Shown here: positions 2,404 to 56,445 of the stretch, in pieces | Position numbering within the stretch: position 1 is the first letter of the stretch | How the letters are laid out: every line of letters begins with the position of its first letter | DNA from: Escherichia phage T4 | Sequence record: NC_000866.4 | Length of the DNA stretch: 64,000 nt | Direction: 5' to 3' (one strand) | Program-made: the position numbers and the translations under genes | Notes under the pieces: model-generated | Told to the model about the DNA's origin: nothing | What the model saw: only the letters and a program-made list of their open reading frames with translations | Database searches by the model: none

Positions 2404-2457
2404 TTCAATATCCTCATTTGCCCAATTAATTATACCACATCCTTGTGGTAAAGTAAA

Positions 2458-48621: not shown

Positions 48622-48936
48622 TTACGCTTTGTCATTTTCTTCTCGGTCAAATCGGTGTTTACAATGGCGACATTTATAACGAAGATTATTAGTCTGCCAA
48701 TGGACCAATTGCACCTGTTCAGTTCCACATTCAGGGCAATTAGGAACGTTTTTAGAAGCCCTTTCGCGACGTTCAACCATGACCATTACAGAATCCCAAT
48801 TAACAGGAGGGCTATAATCATCACAACCATAAATCTTTCCACGCATTTCCAGATCGTCTTCTTCACCAGCCATAATAATTTTAATTAGACTAGAATTACT
48901 TGAAGCTGCAATGTCTTCTAATAGACGCTTTTTCAT
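48622..48936 (-). CDS. hypothetical zinc-ribbon protein
   Basis: 104-aa ORF with CPECG...CRHCKH. Confidence 0.55.
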
Positions 48937-49859
48937 TTCAATACCTCAATAGCATTACGTAAACCATTTGCTTTGGCGGTTAAATCCTTAAGAACTTTAG
49001 TATGCTCTTCAATCTGTTTTTCAACTTCAATCAAACGGGTACTGAGATATTCGCGTTCTTCTTTCATAGTATCATTCCCATGATTGGGCTTTGGCGTAGG
49101 TTTAAATTTATTAGGGTCCTTTAACTTAATAACAACTTTAGTTTCAAACAGTGAAAGACCATAATTCGTATTATCATCAAAGGATTCAACTACGTCCATT
49201 TTAGACAATAACGTACGAAGTTTATAAGTCAAAGAACGAATCGTTTTATTATGTTTATTAGCTTCACATGGTTTCATATATGGAAGATTTTTATATATTT
49301 CATGCGGAGCACAAACAATAATTAACAATTCAAATGGTCCATTCTGAGATGATGGAATGAATTTAGCCGTAACCCAATCTTTTACATTTACATTAATAGT
49401 ACGATCATCGCCATGACAAAACAGTCTACGAGAATGCTTAAAAAGCATATTCACATTATTATTAAATTCGTGTGAAAACTCACTGGCAAATTTTTCTTTA
49501 CTATCTTTAGAAAACCATTCTTCTAAATAAGTTCTTTTCACGTCGTTAATAATATTAAATGTAACAACATTATCATTTGATACATTAGTCTCAATGTAGC
49601 TTGGATACATAAATTTTTTAACATTATTAACAGCTATCACAGAAGATAGTAATCGGGAACGTTTGAACCACTCGAGCAAAGAACCAAGAGAATGTGAATA
49701 CGCATTTTGTGTATCTTTACAAATATGGTTTTCCCATCCAATATAGTCTAAAAAATCACGAAGAATATTATTGATTACTTCTCTATGTCCTTTCTGATAA
49801 TCACGATGTTTAGTAATAAGACTGTCAAAATAATCAATATAATGTTTACGAGTTTTCAT
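48933..49859 (-). CDS. hypothetical protein, paralog family with coiled-coil C-terminus
   Basis: 308-aa ORF starting MKTRKHYIDYF..., coiled-coil C-terminus. Confidence 0.6.
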   Translation of the reverse strand: MKTRKHYIDYFDSLITKHRDYQKGHREVINNILRDFLDYIGWENHICKDTQNAYSHSLGSLLEWFKRSRLLSSVIAVNNVKKFMYPSYIETNVSNDNVVTFNIINDVKRTYLEEWFSKDSKEKFASEFSHEFNNNVNMLFKHSRRLFCHGDDRTINVNVKDWVTAKFIPSSQNGPFELLIIVCAPHEIYKNLPYMKPCEANKHNKTIRSLTYKLRTLLSKMDVVESFDDNTNYGLSLFETKVVIKLKDPNKFKPTPKPNHGNDTMKEEREYLSTRLIEVEKQIEEHTKVLKDLTAKANGLRNAIEVLK

Positions 49860-49913
49860 GTTCTTCTCACTTGGTTAATGATTTATACTCCGAGCCATCC
49901 TTGGCTTTAAATT

Positions 49914-50915
49914 TTACTTAATTAACTGCAAAGCTTGTTCTAGACGATCAAGACGATTAACGGATTCTTCCCAAATCTTTTTAGCCTGCTCATATTCTTT
50001 CTGCGCTTTATTAGAAATTTCTAGAACTTCTTTATAAGCTTTTTCTAGTGCAATAACTTCTGGACGAATTTCTATCGGTTCAGGTGAATCATCAAGACAT
50101 TCCATTAGTTCCTCAAGGGTAGTTTCTTCTTTAGGAGTATTCACAATTTCATCACATTTTTGTTGGTAAATTTCTTTACTAGTAGGTGAATAAGCACATT
50201 TCACTTCACGAAGGCTAATTACGAGTTTATATCCTTCCCAACCGCATATATTCTTAAAAGGATATGTATGAATATTTTCTACTGTTTCCATACAAAGTAA
50301 TGCGGTCTCTAATTGACGAGTTATAGTGCTAGCAATTGAGAAAAATTTATTAATATTCTTTTGGTTAGTTTCTGGTGTAAAAAATCCATAATTCACAAAA
50401 ATAGATACTTTATTTTTATCAAGTTCATATTCTTTTATGATAATCATATCAGAAGCCAAAGGATGAATTTGACGATAATCGCCATAACATAATTTAGAAG
50501 CTGATTTTAGAATTTGCTTCTTGAAAAGTCTGAAATTACTAATCCAACGACGAGTAAAAATATTCTCAGGGTCTTCTTTATTATTGAGATGATAAGAATT
50601 AACATCACCGAACCAATTATATCCTACTACATCTTTAGTTCGTTTAATTTCTTTCCCAAAATTACCAAGAATATCCCGATTAACCAAATATGAAAGAAGA
50701 CGAGACTCTTTAAAGGTTTTCTTGATAACATCTTTATCTACACGGCTAGAAATTTTACGAATTTCATGAATAAATTTAGTAGAAGAAACAATACTTGCAT
50801 CAACACTATTGAGCCACTGATTGATAATAGAAAGAACGCTATTTTGGCCAAACATCGGTATAGCTTTATCATCAATAACGCTATTGAATGATTTGATATA
50901 TTCGTTACGAGTCAT
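49914..50915 (-). CDS. hypothetical protein, paralog family with coiled-coil C-terminus
   Basis: ORF MTRNEYIKSF... (ATG at 50913-50915 behind a strong SD GAGGAG). Confidence 0.6.
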   Translation of the reverse strand: MTRNEYIKSFNSVIDDKAIPMFGQNSVLSIINQWLNSVDASIVSSTKFIHEIRKISSRVDKDVIKKTFKESRLLSYLVNRDILGNFGKEIKRTKDVVGYNWFGDVNSYHLNNKEDPENIFTRRWISNFRLFKKQILKSASKLCYGDYRQIHPLASDMIIIKEYELDKNKVSIFVNYGFFTPETNQKNINKFFSIASTITRQLETALLCMETVENIHTYPFKNICGWEGYKLVISLREVKCAYSPTSKEIYQQKCDEIVNTPKEETTLEELMECLDDSPEPIEIRPEVIALEKAYKEVLEISNKAQKEYEQAKKIWEESVNRLDRLEQALQLIK

Positions 50916-50943
50916 ATTAATCTCCTCAGTAGAAAGTAAGAAC

Positions 50944-50973
50944 ATTATACCACATCCTTGTGGCAAAGTAAAC
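50944..50973 (-). promoter_or_regulatory. early sigma70-type promoter
   Basis: Minus strand GTTTACtttgccacaaggatgtgGTATAAT. Confidence 0.6.
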
Positions 50974-51995
50974 TAGTTCAGTGCATTTAGTGCATTGTTC
51001 AGTTTAGAACGTTGCTTTGTCAGATTTTGAACCCTTGACTGAGCTTGTTCTAACGCCTTTTCAGCTTCTAGCACTTCATTGGTCGCTTTAACTAATTCAG
51101 CATCTACTGCCTTAAGAGACTTCTCAATCGCATCCGCGTGCCATTTTTCAACAGGTTTAAGACTTGGATTTTCAACAGGAAGAAAATTCACTTTATTGAA
51201 TTTCCATGCATCTTTATTACCTGAGCTATACATCCAAAATTTAGGATCGTTTGATAAGTAATTAGATAAATTTAAGTTATCTTGCACTTCTTGCTTTTTC
51301 TCTTGTGTGACTTCGTCCTTTCTCAAAAATTCATATTTAAATGAAACGATCATATCAAGTTCATATGATGTTGTATCTAACTTAAATCGTTCAAAACGAG
51401 GTAAAATCTTAGATTGAACAGCAGCAACAACATCCATATACTTAAATGCTTCTGTCAACTGCGATTTAAGGCATTCGCAAATTGAAAGAGAATTTTTTGT
51501 ATTAGGTTTAAAGCTAATTCGTGCAGTTCTATTATTTTCTTTTAACGGTCTTACTTCCATCTGAAGAGTATAACCATCAAATTTCAGATTCTTTAAGTTA
51601 ATGTCAGAGCCTTTTAATCGACTAGCAGTAGACAAAATTTGCTTTAATTGTCTACGGAACAGAGCAATAAATCTCCATTCAATACGATAATGATTTGGAT
51701 TGAAAAATCCAGATGATAAATCGACCTTACTTTGACCAACGCCTTGAACAAATAGAGGATTTTTATAATCAATAGTTTTACAGAAATCGGTGAGCTGTTC
51801 ACGAGCAGTCATTTGAGTAATATACCCTGCTTTACTAAAATTACGCACCCATTCACTGCTATTCGTATACTTAAAGTGATGAATAACACGATTAACTTTA
51901 TCAGGGTCTAAATTATTTTCACACAAAAATGTCATAACATCACGAGTATAGCTGGCATTACGAACCATATCTTCAATTTGAGAACGAGTTTTCAT
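50973..51995 (-). CDS. hypothetical protein, paralog family with coiled-coil C-terminus
   Basis: 340-aa ORF starting MKTRSQIEDM..., coiled-coil C-terminus. Confidence 0.6.
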   Translation of the reverse strand: MKTRSQIEDMVRNASYTRDVMTFLCENNLDPDKVNRVIHHFKYTNSSEWVRNFSKAGYITQMTAREQLTDFCKTIDYKNPLFVQGVGQSKVDLSSGFFNPNHYRIEWRFIALFRRQLKQILSTASRLKGSDINLKNLKFDGYTLQMEVRPLKENNRTARISFKPNTKNSLSICECLKSQLTEAFKYMDVVAAVQSKILPRFERFKLDTTSYELDMIVSFKYEFLRKDEVTQEKKQEVQDNLNLSNYLSNDPKFWMYSSGNKDAWKFNKVNFLPVENPSLKPVEKWHADAIEKSLKAVDAELVKATNEVLEAEKALEQAQSRVQNLTKQRSKLNNALNALN

Positions 51996-52065
51996 GGTGT
52001 TCCTTAAGATTTAAGTAAATCAACAATTTTAATTAACTTTTCACGCTCAGATTTAGCTTTACTAC

Positions 52066-52917
52066 TCAATCCAGATAGTCTGAAAATTTCATCATCATAT
52101 TGTTGAATAGAAATATCAGCTCTTCAATTTGCTTATTAAAATAATCAATTTGTTCAGAATGTTTTTCGTTACTACGAACTGGTACAGGTTTTGTAGGCAA
52201 TTTAGTTGAACTGGATTCATTCGGGCGATAAATTAAAATGCAATTTGAACCAATCGGGCATTTAGCACCAGATGAATATTCTAACGTTCCAGCTTCTTTT
52301 AAAACTTCAAAAGCTAAACAGAGATGATGCCCCATATTAACATAATCAGTAGAGCGAGCTCTGATGTAATAATCATCTCCACGAGTGCTAAATTTAAAGC
52401 ATTTAAGGTCTTCTGTATTATTAGTTTTAAAAATCATTTGTTTATCTAGACCTTTAGCCAATCGAGCACCTAATGCTAATAATCGTCGTTGATTTTCCCA
52501 CAAATCTGCGATCATTTGGTCAAATGATAATTTCGGCATTAGCCGACCATAAAGGTCATATCCTTTATTATAATTGCGAAGGATTTCACTCGCATTAATA
52601 CGAGACAACGCTCCAATTTTATTAAGGGCTTTCATAATACGATTAGATAAACTCATTCCAGACCCGTTTGTTCGCTGTAAATGTTTTTCTAATCCAAATC
52701 CAATATCAACTTTAAATTTATCTAAAATTTCAGCATGAACATCTCTGTCAATAACATTCAAATCCAAAGTTGGGTTAAATCTATGAAAAAATTTATCTGG
52801 CTCTCCACGACGTAAAACAGTCCATTCATTCATCATTTTTTTATTAACTAAAGATTTAATTACTGCGTTGACATTATTAATTACTACTGACATATTTTCC
52901 TCACTCAATTTTACCAA
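52066..52917 (-). CDS. hypothetical protein
   Basis: 283-aa ORF. Confidence 0.55.
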   Translation of the reverse strand: MVKLSEENMSVVINNVNAVIKSLVNKKMMNEWTVLRRGEPDKFFHRFNPTLDLNVIDRDVHAEILDKFKVDIGFGLEKHLQRTNGSGMSLSNRIMKALNKIGALSRINASEILRNYNKGYDLYGRLMPKLSFDQMIADLWENQRRLLALGARLAKGLDKQMIFKTNNTEDLKCFKFSTRGDDYYIRARSTDYVNMGHHLCLAFEVLKEAGTLEYSSGAKCPIGSNCILIYRPNESSSTKLPTKPVPVRSNEKHSEQIDYFNKQIEELIFLFNNMMMKFSDYLD

Positions 52918-53302: not shown

Positions 53303-53357
53303 AATAATCTCAATTAAAAGGGCTTAGAACCATTATACCATCCTTGGTATAAAGCGG

Positions 53358-53885
53358 TTATGCGAGTACCGTATTTAACCGTTCTTCAAACTTCCGAAGA
53401 GTGTTCTGGCGTTCAGCTCTTTGCTTTTTGTAAGTTTCAATACGCTCTGAAATGAGAGTGTATCGTTCATTTACTGATTCTTTCATAAAATCAGGAATTT
53501 CTCGAGAAGCTTTAATCTCGTCAAATTTATCAATAACAGCTTGCTCTTCAGCAATTAAGTTATCATACATCAAAATATCTTTCTTGATGAACTCAATATC
53601 TTCTTGAGTTACACGAGATAATTTAGATGCTTTATCCTTTTTGTACTGTTCGTTAGTATCACGAGACCAGTGTAATGTACGATTTTTATTCGTATTCTTG
53701 TAAATTTCTACAATACCAATCTCATCGATAATAACGATCCAATTCCAACGGGATTTGTAAATTTGTCCTCCATTAACAGTGATTTCACCTCCGATTGAGA
53801 TGTCATTAAAGAACTTGCTTTGTGCTTCTGATTTAAATTTACCATCGTTGTAATTTACCAGGTTGAAAATATCTTTAGCGTTCAT
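53358..53885 (-). CDS. hypothetical protein
   Basis: ORF MNAKDIFNLVNYNDGKF... (ATG at 53883-53885 behind SD GGAGGAA); the longer ORF-track start would overlap the promoter. Confidence 0.55.
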   Translation of the reverse strand: MNAKDIFNLVNYNDGKFKSEAQSKFFNDISIGGEITVNGGQIYKSRWNWIVIIDEIGIVEIYKNTNKNRTLHWSRDTNEQYKKDKASKLSRVTQEDIEFIKKDILMYDNLIAEEQAVIDKFDEIKASREIPDFMKESVNERYTLISERIETYKKQRAERQNTLRKFEERLNTVLA

Positions 53886-53911: not shown

Positions 53912-53943
53912 GTATAGTACCACAGAGGAACGGTCTTGTAAAC
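53912..53943 (-). promoter_or_regulatory. early sigma70-type promoter
   Basis: Minus strand GTTTAC -35 with a TATAC-type -10, same arrangement as the other early promoters here. Confidence 0.5.
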
Positions 53944-54342: not shown

Positions 54343-55332
54343 TTATGAATTTATTTCAGAAGAGTAACCCGTAGCGATTTCTTCCCAACCGTTTTTGTCG
54401 GTCATAATAAAGTCAGCAAGATAAAGTGCAGTACGCAGTGAAACATTACGTAAACGGTTAACATTGACTTTCATCCATGATAATGCTTTATAAGTTTCTT
54501 CATCAGAAAGACCACGCTTTTGCATCATGTCGGTTGAAAGAATAACATCTTCAACCCTGACCATAATTTCTTCATTAGTGTGAACACCCAAATCCAAATA
54601 AACTGAGCGGGACACTAATGCTTGTAAATGTGGAGCAAGTTTAGTACCACGGTCTAATTCGCGGTCAATGTCAACGTTTGTGATAAAAACAATTGTTCCT
54701 TTAAATTCGAGCTCACGCTCAATGCCTTTTTCTTCTAAGTAAGAAGATGCAGTGCTCCAGCAGACTTTACGGGTCTCTCCAGTGTCCAGAGCAGCTTTCA
54801 GAAGATTAAGAATGTCCATATCAGAGAAAACATCCACATCATCAATCAAAAGGACAGAATTCTCTTCACGATTATTCCAAAGCTGTTCATAAAGACCGAT
54901 ACCAGAGATTTTACCGTTAATGCTTTTATACTCAATGTATCCAATATCATTTGCTTTATTCAAAGCTTTATCTAAAGAATATGTTTTACCAATACCCGCC
55001 GCACCAGAGATAATTAATGAACGAATATTTCCGTTAATAATACCATTCGTCATCATTCCCATAACATTAAATCTTTTATTAATGCGGGTTTTCATATCTT
55101 CATATGATTCTTTAACTTCTTCAACTTTTACACCATCATATGAAATGTCTGATTTGTAAACCCAAACACCGCGACGTTTACCGTCAATTTCAACAAAAAC
55201 TTTACCATCTCCTTGTGCATCTACCGGAGCATTATCAGGGAACCATTCACCTAAGAGCTCAAAAGTTCCAGAGATTTCTTTACCGAAGTACATACCCTTA
55301 TTGATAGTTACAGTTTTCATTTTATTCTCCAA
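54343..55332 (-). CDS. predicted P-loop NTPase (AAA-like ATPase)
   Basis: 329-aa ORF with Walker A GAAGIGKT and Walker B LLIDDVD. Confidence 0.65.
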   Translation of the reverse strand: MENKMKTVTINKGMYFGKEISGTFELLGEWFPDNAPVDAQGDGKVFVEIDGKRRGVWVYKSDISYDGVKVEEVKESYEDMKTRINKRFNVMGMMTNGIINGNIRSLIISGAAGIGKTYSLDKALNKANDIGYIEYKSINGKISGIGLYEQLWNNREENSVLLIDDVDVFSDMDILNLLKAALDTGETRKVCWSTASSYLEEKGIERELEFKGTIVFITNVDIDRELDRGTKLAPHLQALVSRSVYLDLGVHTNEEIMVRVEDVILSTDMMQKRGLSDEETYKALSWMKVNVNRLRNVSLRTALYLADFIMTDKNGWEEIATGYSSEINS

Positions 55333-55434: not shown

Positions 55435-56445
55435 TCATTTATAATAACTTCGATGGTTTTCAAGATAAACCCTCTCAAGGAAGTCATCCCAGAAACTCAT
55501 GTCTACTTTTTGCTGCATACCGTTCTTAGAAGCTTCAGTAGATGCTGCTTCTACTTGATCGACCACATCTTCCAAAAACTCTTGAACGGTTTTAAATGGA
55601 TGCTTACCCAACTTCACGTCGAGAATAAATGGAGCATCTTGGAGTGGATAAACCAAGTCACCAGTTTTGTAAATTTCCAATAGTTGAAGTCCACCACGAC
55701 AAGCATGGCTCAGAGCTTTCCAGTCAATGCCTTCATTGGCTTCGGCCTTACGAGCACGTTCGCCGTATTCAGCATCTAATTTGTTCAGTGACTGCTTAAG
55801 CTCAATAAGAGAAAGCGTTGTCTGATATTTACGACCCAACACTGTGTAAAACGTTTGTGGGCCTGTTTTCTCATGATTATGGAACACCCATTCACAGAAT
55901 TCGTTTTCTGGAAGACGATGCTTAATATCTTCAACTTTAGTACGACGCTGCTTAATGGAACCATCTTCTTGGTAATCAACCCATTGCTCAGGGATTTGAT
56001 TAACTACTTTCAATACATCGCGTAATGCAGCCAAACGAGAACCCTTGACGCCGTATTTAGAAGCTTGCTTGCGGACATATCCTAAATATGATTTCATGTT
56101 AGTCGTATAAAAACGAGAACGGTTGTCTTGAATAAACTTCCAAACATCAGGCAAATCGGATTTAACCACTAGTTCAGGTGGAGTGTGAAGCATATCCAAT
56201 GCTACAGGTTCACCATCTGCTGCTAATTTAAAGAAATACTTAAGACTATACAATTCGTGGTCAATATTATCTTTAGTGTTTTTAGATGATGTGTTGTTGG
56301 TATTTTTACTCATGTGCTCTTTGACGTTTCCAATAAGAATATCGCGAGCAGGAGGAACAAAGATTTCTTTAAAATCTACATCAGATTCTGGAGTAGAAGT
56401 TCCATAAAGATGACTACCAAAATAAGACTTAACTACAGTTTTCAT
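55435..56445 (-). CDS. predicted Pol-beta-type nucleotidyltransferase
   Basis: ORF with the minimal NTase motif GSHLYGTSTPESDVD (GS...S/D-x-D); ATG at 56443-56445. Confidence 0.6.
   Translation of the reverse strand: MKTVVKSYFGSHLYGTSTPESDVDFKEIFVPPARDILIGNVKEHMSKNTNNTSSKNTKDNIDHELYSLKYFFKLAADGEPVALDMLHTPPELVVKSDLPDVWKFIQDNRSRFYTTNMKSYLGYVRKQASKYGVKGSRLAALRDVLKVVNQIPEQWVDYQEDGSIKQRRTKVEDIKHRLPENEFCEWVFHNHEKTGPQTFYTVLGRKYQTTLSLIELKQSLNKLDAEYGERARKAEANEGIDWKALSHACRGGLQLLEIYKTGDLVYPLQDAPFILDVKLGKHPFKTVQEFLEDVVDQVEAASTEASKNGMQQKVDMSFWDDFLERVYLENHRSYYK

Follow-up and report, generated by a model that had tools for sequence, protein, structure and literature searches.

The window analyzed here, 64,000 nucleotides of Escherichia phage T4 DNA (sequence record NC_000866.4), carries on its minus strand four co-oriented, adjacent early genes of phage T4, nrdC.3, nrdC.4, nrdC.5 and nrdC.6. 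A first-pass annotation, made from the letters alone, had described this region as a tandem array of paralogs with coiled-coil C-termini. Here we report that the four genes probably form one protein family, that nrdC.6 carries a coiled coil which a missing base hides in this sequence, and that one member, nrdC.5, is the gene already published as acting against the host defense protein Dsr1. The 4.8-kb stretch around the array matches phage T4 record U76612 at 100% identity; at 99.9% it matches a further eleven records, nine of them T4 genomes and the other two RB55 and RB59. In the T4T annotation, the minus-strand order of transcription is nrdC.8, nrdC.7, nrdC.6, nrdC.5, nrdC.4, nrdC.3, nrdC.2, nrdC.1 and nrdC. 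The genes and the site of the missing base are as follows (ORF, open reading frame; aa, amino acids; E, expectation value; SD, Shine-Dalgarno sequence).

48933 to 49859, minus strand: nrdC.3 coding sequence, 308 aa (ORF list, T4T annotation; PHROG_1435, E 5.5e-101)
49914 to 50915, minus strand: nrdC.4 coding sequence, 333 aa from the ATG at 50915, with the SD GAGGAG upstream (PHROG_1435, E 5.6e-168)
50973 to 51995, minus strand: nrdC.5 coding sequence, 340 aa, the published anti-Dsr1 gene (DUF7235, E 5e-126; PHROG_2351)
52004 to 52893, minus strand: nrdC.6 coding sequence as corrected, 296 aa once the A is restored (alignment to T4T, corrected translation)
52116 to 52117, minus strand: site of the missing A; the window reads GAGCTG^ATATT and T4T reads GAGCTGAATATT (alignment to T4T)

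The three consecutive ORFs of 308, 333 and 340 aa noticed at first correspond exactly, in both the ORF list and the T4T annotation, to nrdC.3, nrdC.4 and nrdC.5, and the ORF at 50973–51995 is 100% identical to T4 nrdC.5. The M(K)TR start that they were said to share is also real (MKTRKHYIDYF in nrdC.3, MTRNEYIKSF in nrdC.4 and MKTRSQIEDM in nrdC.5). The nrdC.3 coding sequence overlaps the start of nrdC.2 by 4 nt (ATGA). The start of nrdC.4 is called in several ways: many gene callers begin ten codons early (window 50916–50945), at an ATG within the promoter -10 box, which yields 343-aa forms beginning MFLLSTEEINM, and the ORF list places it still further upstream, at a TTG at 50966; the annotation uses the ATG at 50915, which follows an SD.

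The fourth ORF, given at first as 283 aa at 52066–52917, proved to be wrongly delimited at both ends. Its TTG extension is a product of mechanical ORF calling, as annotation begins the gene with the ATG at 52893, which has GAGG upstream, and its 3' end is frameshifted. Across nrdC.6, the window differs from T4T at a single place, where one A is absent between 52117 and 52116; the eleven near-identical records span 4802–4803 nt against the 4801-nt query, which fits an extra base. In the window the frame breaks at this base, so that only 52066–52893 is open; the 275-aa product closes with 12 residues unrelated to the proper ending, and this truncated form is the annotation in U76612. With the A restored, the stop lies at 52004–52006, 8 nt ahead of the nrdC.5 ATG, and the C-terminus becomes ...KQIEELNISIQQYDDEIFRLSGLSSKAKSEREKLIKIVDLLKS, a coiled coil like those of NrdC.3, NrdC.4 and NrdC.5. 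The 296-aa protein aligns unbroken over residues 1–296 to other T4 records (tblastn), and its tail is kept in all 10 homologs examined (10/10). Because of the frameshift, the window form matches PHROG_2257 (E 7e-126) only over profile positions 1–266 of 303. The simplest reading is that the one-base gap in U76612 is a 1990s sequencing error, but it may instead be a strain- or stock-specific mutation. In either case it truncates nrdC.6 and hides its coiled coil, and the record is worth correcting.

Curated families divide the four proteins into three separate groups, all of unknown function. PF26897 and PHROG_1435 already merge NrdC.3 with NrdC.4 (a precomputed PF26897 match is present on every NrdC.3/NrdC.4 homolog cluster, including those 95–96% identical to T4), DUF7235 (PF23882) and PHROG_2351 hold NrdC.5, and PHROG_2257 holds NrdC.6; the links of NrdC.5 to NrdC.3 and NrdC.4, those of NrdC.6, and the common tail are not captured. 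NrdC.5 matches DUF7235 over its full length with 420.6 bits, and PHROG_2351 with E 1e-168. With the DUF7235 hidden Markov model (HMM), whose gathering threshold is 30 bits, the coiled coil of NrdC.3 gave a score of no more than 11.6 bits, and no match was obtained for NrdC.4 or NrdC.6; therefore NrdC.5 is the only DUF7235 member among the four. Neither Pfam nor PHROGs assigns a function to any of these proteins. In many GenBank phage records the label "thioredoxin" is found alike on nrdC.4, nrdC.5, nrdC.6 and nrdC.11, and it therefore looks like propagation from the locus name. We rejected a thioredoxin or glutaredoxin identity, as no match to a Pfam family of either kind was found for any of the four proteins, even at E<=1.

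All four proteins end in a heptad-patterned segment. In our heptad test, we took the register with the most hydrophobic a and d positions and set it against 2000 shuffles of the same segment; the figures below are a/d hydrophobic fractions in the segment and elsewhere.

48936 to 49082, minus strand: NrdC.3 coiled coil, last 49 aa (...LRNAIEVLK), 0.79 vs 0.17, P=0.001
49917 to 50063, minus strand: NrdC.4 coiled coil, last 49 aa (...LEQALQLIK), 0.86 vs 0.26, P=0.0005
50976 to 51143, minus strand: NrdC.5 coiled coil, last 56 aa (...LNNALNALN), 0.94 vs 0.23, P<0.0005
52007 to 52152, minus strand: coiled coil of the corrected NrdC.6, last 49 aa (...LIKIVDLLKS), 0.86 vs 0.20, P=0.0005

The heptad-like C-termini proposed for the three ORFs are thus confirmed (0.79–0.94 vs 0.17–0.26, P<=0.001), and the NrdC.6 segment, which lies downstream of the missing base and is out of frame in the window, adds a fourth. 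Counted from the C-terminus, the heptad register (~7 heptads) is identical in NrdC.3, NrdC.4, NrdC.5 and the corrected NrdC.6, and the tails are conserved across homologs. In the AlphaFold2 model of NrdC.5, residues 282–339 form one uninterrupted helix with a block-mean predicted local distance difference test score (pLDDT) of 81–93. The neighboring NrdC.8 (53358–53885, 175 aa) also has a heptad-like helical C-terminal segment (P 0.025).

Pairwise alignment and HMM-HMM comparison, the checks proposed for paralogy, gave different answers. Pairwise BLASTP of the T4 proteins was marginal (NrdC.3–NrdC.4, E 0.001, collinear over 271 residues; NrdC.3–NrdC.5, 0.014; NrdC.4–NrdC.5, 0.15) and was set aside as too weak to decide. 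We then built family alignments, named C3, C4, C5 and C6 after NrdC.3, NrdC.4, NrdC.5 and NrdC.6, from homologs in a large protein collection, a representative search with NrdC.5, 14 related viral loci and annotated Mosigvirus records, and compared them profile to profile (hhalign), with the following results.

C3 vs C4: E 5.6e-14, probability 98%, 211 columns
C4 vs C5: E 1.2e-5, probability 81%, 235 columns
C4 vs C5 with the last 55 residues removed: E 3.3e-6, probability 88%, 138 columns
C3 vs C5: E 3.7e-5, probability 71%, 227 columns
Merged C3+C4+C5 vs C6: E 2.8e-5, probability 74%, 125 collinear columns

The comparisons among C3, C4 and C5 are significant (E 5.6e-14 to 3.7e-5). As the C4–C5 match persists without the tail, the coiled coil is not the driver of the similarity; the 125 columns common to the merged profile and C6 likewise lie in the N-terminal half, outside the tail. 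Null scores were obtained by shuffling alignment columns in blocks of ten and by reversing alignments. Against the block-shuffle null of 18.7 +/- 2.6 the C4–C5 score was 45.5, the C3–C5 score had z 6.7, and the merged profile scored 43.5 against C6 (null 18.1 +/- 2.4, maximum 27.1, reached by 0/150 shuffles); all family comparisons beat every shuffle (0/40 to 0/150), and the paralogy proposed at first is therefore significant, far above both nulls. Depth of the NrdC.5 alignment mattered: a shallow one, in which all homologs were >=81% identical, gave E 7.7e-4 and 0.058, and the scores rose once homologs at 22–43% identity from the representative search and the loci were included. The nrdC.8 gene, considered as a fifth member, was rejected, as its score (z 0.6) was within the null despite its weak heptads.

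Two sequence blocks are aligned in every pair, an FKxSRLLSxLV..D.L..FGK segment and a long helix RWxxxFRxxxKxILKxAxKL..GD.R, and a third, the AL..M(D/E)(V/T)V helix, is present in C3, C4 and C5 only. These blocks fall inside the confidently modelled core of NrdC.5.

51330 to 51836, minus strand: structured alpha/beta core of NrdC.5, residues 54–222 (AlphaFold2 pLDDT mostly 80–93)

The core consists of helices 54–69, 105–127 and 169–185 and strands 74–92, 144–162 and 190–219, and the alignment with NrdC.4 and NrdC.3 falls in this part; for NrdC.4 it was obtained with the tail removed (E 3.3e-6 over 138 columns). What had been called a divergent middle thus appears to be a homologous alpha/beta core. 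From these data, homology of C3 and C4 is certain at the level of sequence, that of C5 to C3/C4 is probable, and that of C6 to C3, C4 and C5 is likely. The fourth ORF, which had been mentioned merely as following the other three, is then likely a member, and the array has four members.

It might be argued that only nrdC.3, nrdC.4 and nrdC.5 are true paralogs and that nrdC.6 is an unrelated gene of comparable length, whose coiled-coil tail arose separately or was exchanged as a module. When C6 was compared with one family at a time the matches were weak (E 0.004 to 0.11), no KTRxEY start is seen in C6, the NrdC.6 model matches its own family alone in BFVD, and NrdC.8 is heptad-ended yet unrelated. 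Tails also do move in this region, as seen in protein P0161 (see below), which joins an unrelated N-terminal part to the NrdC.5 tail. However, the merged profile finds C6 over 125 N-terminal columns with none of 150 shuffles reaching its score, the motifs sit on matching predicted helices (C6 helix 124–146 corresponds to C5 helix 105–127, followed by strands and then a helix), and C6 is next to the array in all loci examined. We therefore regard an unrelated nrdC.6 as unlikely, while it is the most serious of the alternatives, and continue with a family of four.

Searches with the structure models did not point to a function. The best BFVD matches of the NrdC.5 model were uncharacterised T4-like phage proteins (Cronus, 9e-8; Mineola, 8e-7), and a 175-aa protein of Klebsiella phage KPV15 was a weak Foldseek match (E 2e-3). 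When PDB chains were searched by sequence with the NrdC.5 and NrdC.4 profiles, all matches were coiled-coil or designed helical-repeat noise (e.g. Smc and EmrA), and no solved structure related by sequence to NrdC.5 or NrdC.4 was found among these chains.

In every orthologous group, conservation is higher in the coiled coil than in the N-terminal part, which is the more variable. Among divergent homologs, identity to T4 in the coiled coil vs the rest was 0.76 vs 0.56 for C3, 0.64 vs 0.42 for C4, 0.27 vs 0.19 for C5 and 0.61 vs 0.34 for C6. This amends the first account of the array. We also calculated the nonsynonymous (dN) and synonymous (dS) substitution rates for T4 vs four close relatives (Nei-Gojobori). 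In most comparisons nrdC.3, nrdC.4 and nrdC.5 had dN 0.03–0.05 and dN/dS 0.16–0.30; one nearly identical nrdC.3 pair gave 0.82, from very few substitutions, and nrdC.6 had dN/dS 0.04–0.16. For nrdC, nrdC.1, nrdC.8–nrdC.11 and gene 49, dN was <=0.014 and dN/dS 0–0.11 in most comparisons, and values for nrdC.2, nrdC.7 and pin were also somewhat raised. Two deeply diverged alleles (~60% amino-acid identity, dS ~1) exist for nrdC.3, and likewise two for nrdC.2, in otherwise similar genomes. Raised dN, dN/dS below 1 and diverged alleles together indicate genes that are faster-evolving and mosaic and are under purifying selection overall. The description of these genes as rapidly evolving is therefore right as to rate, with dN 3–10 times that of most flanking genes, whereas dN/dS of 0.16–0.30 shows no positive selection. 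The nrdC.2 alleles of close relatives were 58–78% identical, with dS ~0.5–1.2.

The content of the array varies across T4-like genomes; among those examined, copy number was 1 (Jiaodavirus), 2–3 (Mosigvirus), 3 (a divergent group) or 4 (Tequatrovirus). The arrangements were as follows, with C2, C7 and C8 written for nrdC.2, nrdC.7 and nrdC.8.

T4-like loci: C8-C7-C6-C5-C4-C3-C2
Divergent group (loci L007–L015): C8-C6-C5-C4-C2, without C3 and without C7
Mosigvirus PhAPEC2: a C6-like gene (332 aa), the C5-family gene RB69p097 (HMM E 1e-26) and a C3-type gene
Mosigvirus ESCO47: C6-like and C3-type genes only
Klebsiella Jiaodavirus KP179: a single member, gp156 (324 aa)

KP179 gp156 matched the merged HMM with E 5.6e-11, has all the motifs and the coiled-coil tail, and has relatives in 142 Klebsiella and Raoultella phage records. 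C3-type and C4-type copies occur together in T4, and other lineages have one or the other, which fits duplication or acquisition by recombination. By tblastn, nrdC.4 was found in 552 phage records, nrdC.5 in 580 and nrdC.6 in 740; the neighbor nrdC.11 was found in 1553.

Several relatives show rearranged copies. P0034, on contigs of up to 167 kb, is a 299-aa chimera of NrdC.5 residues ~146–268 and NrdC.3 from ~137 on, joined at the FN(K/N)VN motif common to both (...AWKFNKVN|MLFKH...), which points to a deletion that removed nrdC.4 and fused its two neighbors. P0161 (173 aa, L020 120–641) occupies the nrdC.5 slot directly upstream of an nrdC.4 homolog and has a ~115-residue unrelated N-terminal part and a near-identical NrdC.5 coiled coil; its contig is 803 bp, and mis-assembly is possible. 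In P0165 (157 aa) a signal-like, low-complexity N-terminus is followed by part of the NrdC.5 tail. The nrdC.4 gene is split into 193-aa and 158-aa ORFs in phage vB_EcoM_G8 (L006 6971–8003), matches in two pieces spanning ~250 extra nt in Sf25 (H46), aligns in two pieces in T2 (H48), and is represented by its last 83 residues only in Salmonella phage Manna (H70). This damage in several relatives suggests ongoing decay and rearrangement. The array borders were also rearranged among genera, since the Mosigvirus nrdC.7 membrane-protein gene (L016 8254–8661; L017 7295–7708) has nrdC.2 and nrdC on its two sides in place of nrdC.8 and nrdC.6, and no nrdC.7 homolog was detected within the array of loci L007–L015.

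Early expression of the array is supported by annotated early promoters. The promoters and the spacer ahead of nrdC.3 are as follows.

50944 to 50973, minus strand: early promoter 50.0 (U76612 name), between nrdC.5 and nrdC.4 (promoter scan 10/12 with TG)
49860 to 49913, minus strand: spacer between nrdC.4 and nrdC.3, with hairpin AGCCAAGGATGGCT, then GTATAAAT and the SD-like GAGAAG (sequence)
53913 to 53943, minus strand: early promoter upstream of nrdC.8, TTTACA-17-TACTAT with TG (promoter scan, U76612 features)

Promoter 50.0 has the -35 box GTTTAC, a 17-nt spacer and then TGGTATAAT; its -10 box is TATAAT with TG ahead of it, and its spacer contains the hairpin GCCACAAGGATGTGGT (50948–50963; fold -14.4 kcal/mol, z -2.05). 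With a stem-loop between -35 and -10, in an intergenic spacer of a variable region, it is a cassette of the PeSL (promoter-early stem-loop) type. The nrdC.4–nrdC.3 spacer RNA folds with -8.4 kcal/mol (z -1.8), and nrdC.3 is preceded by a degenerate PeSL-like cassette; a similar cassette precedes nrdC.7. The hairpins before nrdC.4, nrdC.3 (49892–49905) and nrdC.7 (ATACCAAGGATGGTAT, 53331–53346) have the loop motif CAAGGATG in common, two of the three are embedded in early-promoter -35/-10 pairs, and all three resemble the PeSL cassettes known from T4-type phages. The sequence CAAGGATGTGGTATAAT recurs without a change at window 2429–2445. The expectation that each gene would have its own SD or early promoter was confirmed: nrdC.4 has promoter 50.0 and GAGGAG, and SD-like sequences precede nrdC.3, nrdC.5 and also nrdC.6, that of nrdC.5 (AAGGAA) overlying the corrected nrdC.6 stop. 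The promoter upstream of nrdC.8 is probably the start of a transcript that would carry nrdC.8, nrdC.7, nrdC.6 and nrdC.5.

Hyperplastic regions and PeSL cassettes have been described before (Arbiol et al. 2010, PMC2839356; Comeau et al. 2014, PMC4122927). The array likewise belongs to a variable region; between its genes are cassettes of early promoter and stem-loop, of the kind suggested to mediate gene shuffling, and relatives differ in copy number and alleles. These two studies describe the exchange mechanism, not the NrdC.3–NrdC.6 protein family.

Previous work provides a phenotype for one member. Srikant, Guegler and Laub (eLife 2022, PMC9391042) evolved T4 on toxIN cells, and one evolved clone with compensatory deletions could not infect E. 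coli ECOR17. Infection was regained once ECOR17 had lost dsr1, MG1655 given cloned dsr1 became protected against the deletion clone, and plasmid-expressed nrdC.5 restored plating of this clone on MG1655 carrying ECOR17 dsr1. The deletions of the evolved clones, one of which removed nrdC.5, included none of the 62 T4 essential genes (PMC9391042). More recently, the TPR sensor domain of Dsr1 was reported to be common to Avs7, and a phage major capsid protein to be the trigger of the toxicity of E. coli Dsr1 (WP_029488749.1) (PMC12803255, 2026 preprint). The nrdC.5 of the 2022 study is the same gene as that in the array, and its relatives in the array match it in build and, by profile, in ancestry. 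That study treats nrdC.5 as a lone uncharacterised early gene, without a mechanism and with no mention of paralogs. The assignment of the array to host interaction is thus published for one member, by rescue of a T4 deletion mutant on dsr1 cells; by extension, nrdC.3, nrdC.4 and nrdC.6 may be considered candidate counter-defence genes.

We propose that the four genes descend from one ancestor and encode accessory proteins that would act on the host rather than in phage replication, NrdC.5 neutralising Dsr1 and its relatives using the same scaffold on other targets; we place the probability of this reading at roughly 0.6. The predicted common build begins at the N-terminus with a short helical segment, whose start is KTRxEY-like in three of the proteins, and continues with an alpha/beta core of ~170 residues, a flexible low-complexity linker and a ~50-residue C-terminal coiled coil ending ...A(I/L)xxLK. 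The coiled-coil tail would make each protein an oligomer, and the variable core would bind a host immune protein directly. For NrdC.5 the target would be the host immune protein Dsr1, which combines a SIR2 NADase effector with a TPR sensor and is triggered by phage major capsid protein. Since the genes are early, the inhibitor would be in place ahead of the late-made capsid trigger. By analogy with the action of DSAD1 on DSR2, NrdC.5 might then hold Dsr1 inactive, and the other three members might use the scaffold against other or variant host factors. A conserved tail and a variable core are the pattern expected of such a design, although this is no proof of it.

DSAD1 is a phage-encoded protein that prevents the activation of a defence protein, a SIR2-domain NADase (PMC10973363, PMC10981675, PMC11087589). 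It offers a working analogy for NrdC.5, in which the sensor would be occupied so that the structural-protein trigger could not activate it. The target of DSAD1 differs, being DSR2 of Bacillus, which is triggered by tail tube protein, and NrdC.5 is likened to it by action only. DSAD1 is not known to have a coiled-coil tail or to belong to a tandem paralog array. A bolder version of the proposal would make the family a reusable platform of coiled-coil oligomer and variable core that silences immune receptors sensing phage structural proteins, with NrdC.5 as a decoy or blocker of the Dsr1 TPR sensor and NrdC.3, NrdC.4 and NrdC.6 each disarming another such receptor, e.g. one with a sensor of the Dsr1/Avs7 type. 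We offer this version only tentatively, and would sooner doubt it than adopt it.

Several observations weigh against the proposal. With regard to common ancestry, Pfam and PHROGs hold C5 (DUF7235, PHROG_2351) and C6 (PHROG_2257) as separate families, an exhaustive phmmer search with NrdC.5 returned 12 representatives, none of the C3/C4 family, and the C6 link is one profile comparison with a probability of 74%. The NrdC.6 core model is poor (pLDDT 34–48) and in BFVD it matched its own family alone; the order of elements in this low-confidence model (long helix, strands, helix at the aligned positions) is as in NrdC.5. With regard to function, fold searches yielded no informative functional analogue, we found no literature on nrdC.3, nrdC.4 or nrdC.6 or on the NrdC.5 mechanism beyond PMC9391042 and incidental mentions, the NrdC.5 rescue on dsr1 cells could be indirect, and dN/dS below 1 gives no whole-gene sign of an arms race.

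The four proteins might alternatively assemble, through their coiled coils, into one hetero-oligomeric complex with a single function, rather than acting as independent inhibitors of separate targets. All four genes are early and in one cluster, their coiled coils are alike in length and in register from the C-terminus, and in each protein conservation is highest in the coiled coil. However, plasmid-borne nrdC.5 alone is reported to restore plating of a deletion clone that may have kept other nrdC genes, copy number in related phages ranges from 1 to 4, including the single-copy state, and the tails differ strongly in sequence, with coiled-coil-only hhalign giving E 2.6e-4 to 0.25 between them. 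Such an obligate assembly therefore seems improbable to us. It is less probable still that the proteins have a general role in the physiology of the infected cell, e.g. in organising a host or phage structure by means of their coiled coils, and that the Dsr1 rescue is an indirect by-product. The genes do sit among nucleotide-metabolism genes, their dN/dS is below 1 and no published mechanism was found; yet the deletions of the evolved clones, one of them taking nrdC.5, spared all 62 essential genes, the family occurs in 550–740 phage records, much narrower than nrdC.11, and allele swaps, gene splits and fusions are seen in close relatives. Finally, that the similarity reflects composition and coiled-coil periodicity only, with no gene family, is scarcely credible and for C3, C4 and C5 already refuted: the DNA is AT-rich, K, E and N are abundant in the proteins and BLASTP is marginal (0.001 to 0.15), but significance holds without the last 55 residues, scores are 6–10 standard deviations above block-shuffled and reversed alignments that keep composition, and the nrdC.8 control stays inside the null.

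The proposal of one family acting on host targets is thus favored, and it is a modest, testable extension of known facts; the initial observation was real and its interpretation essentially right. Earlier work had already supplied the genes, the grouping of C3 with C4, DUF7235 and the phenotype of nrdC.5. New here are the probable unification of the four genes into one family, based on sequence profiles, the recovered NrdC.6 coiled coil, the series from one to four copies and the pattern of conserved tail and variable core. Although T4 is the reference phage, its four array genes still go by "hypothetical" or, incorrectly, "thioredoxin". Linking the nrdC.5 phenotype with its three neighbors yields three concrete candidates for counter-defence proteins, and a conserved tail, predicted to oligomerise, together with a variable core suggests how specificity could change. 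The gain is incremental.

Neighboring genes provided some minor observations. The nrdC.2 product (48622–48936) is a small zinc-ribbon-like protein (CPEC...CRHC), whose matches to DUF7129 and other zinc ribbons were weak and all below threshold. A Walker-A-like motif, GAAGIGKT, is present in nrdC.10 (54343–55332), and nrdC.11 (55438–56445) is a nucleotidyltransferase by RefSeq annotation.

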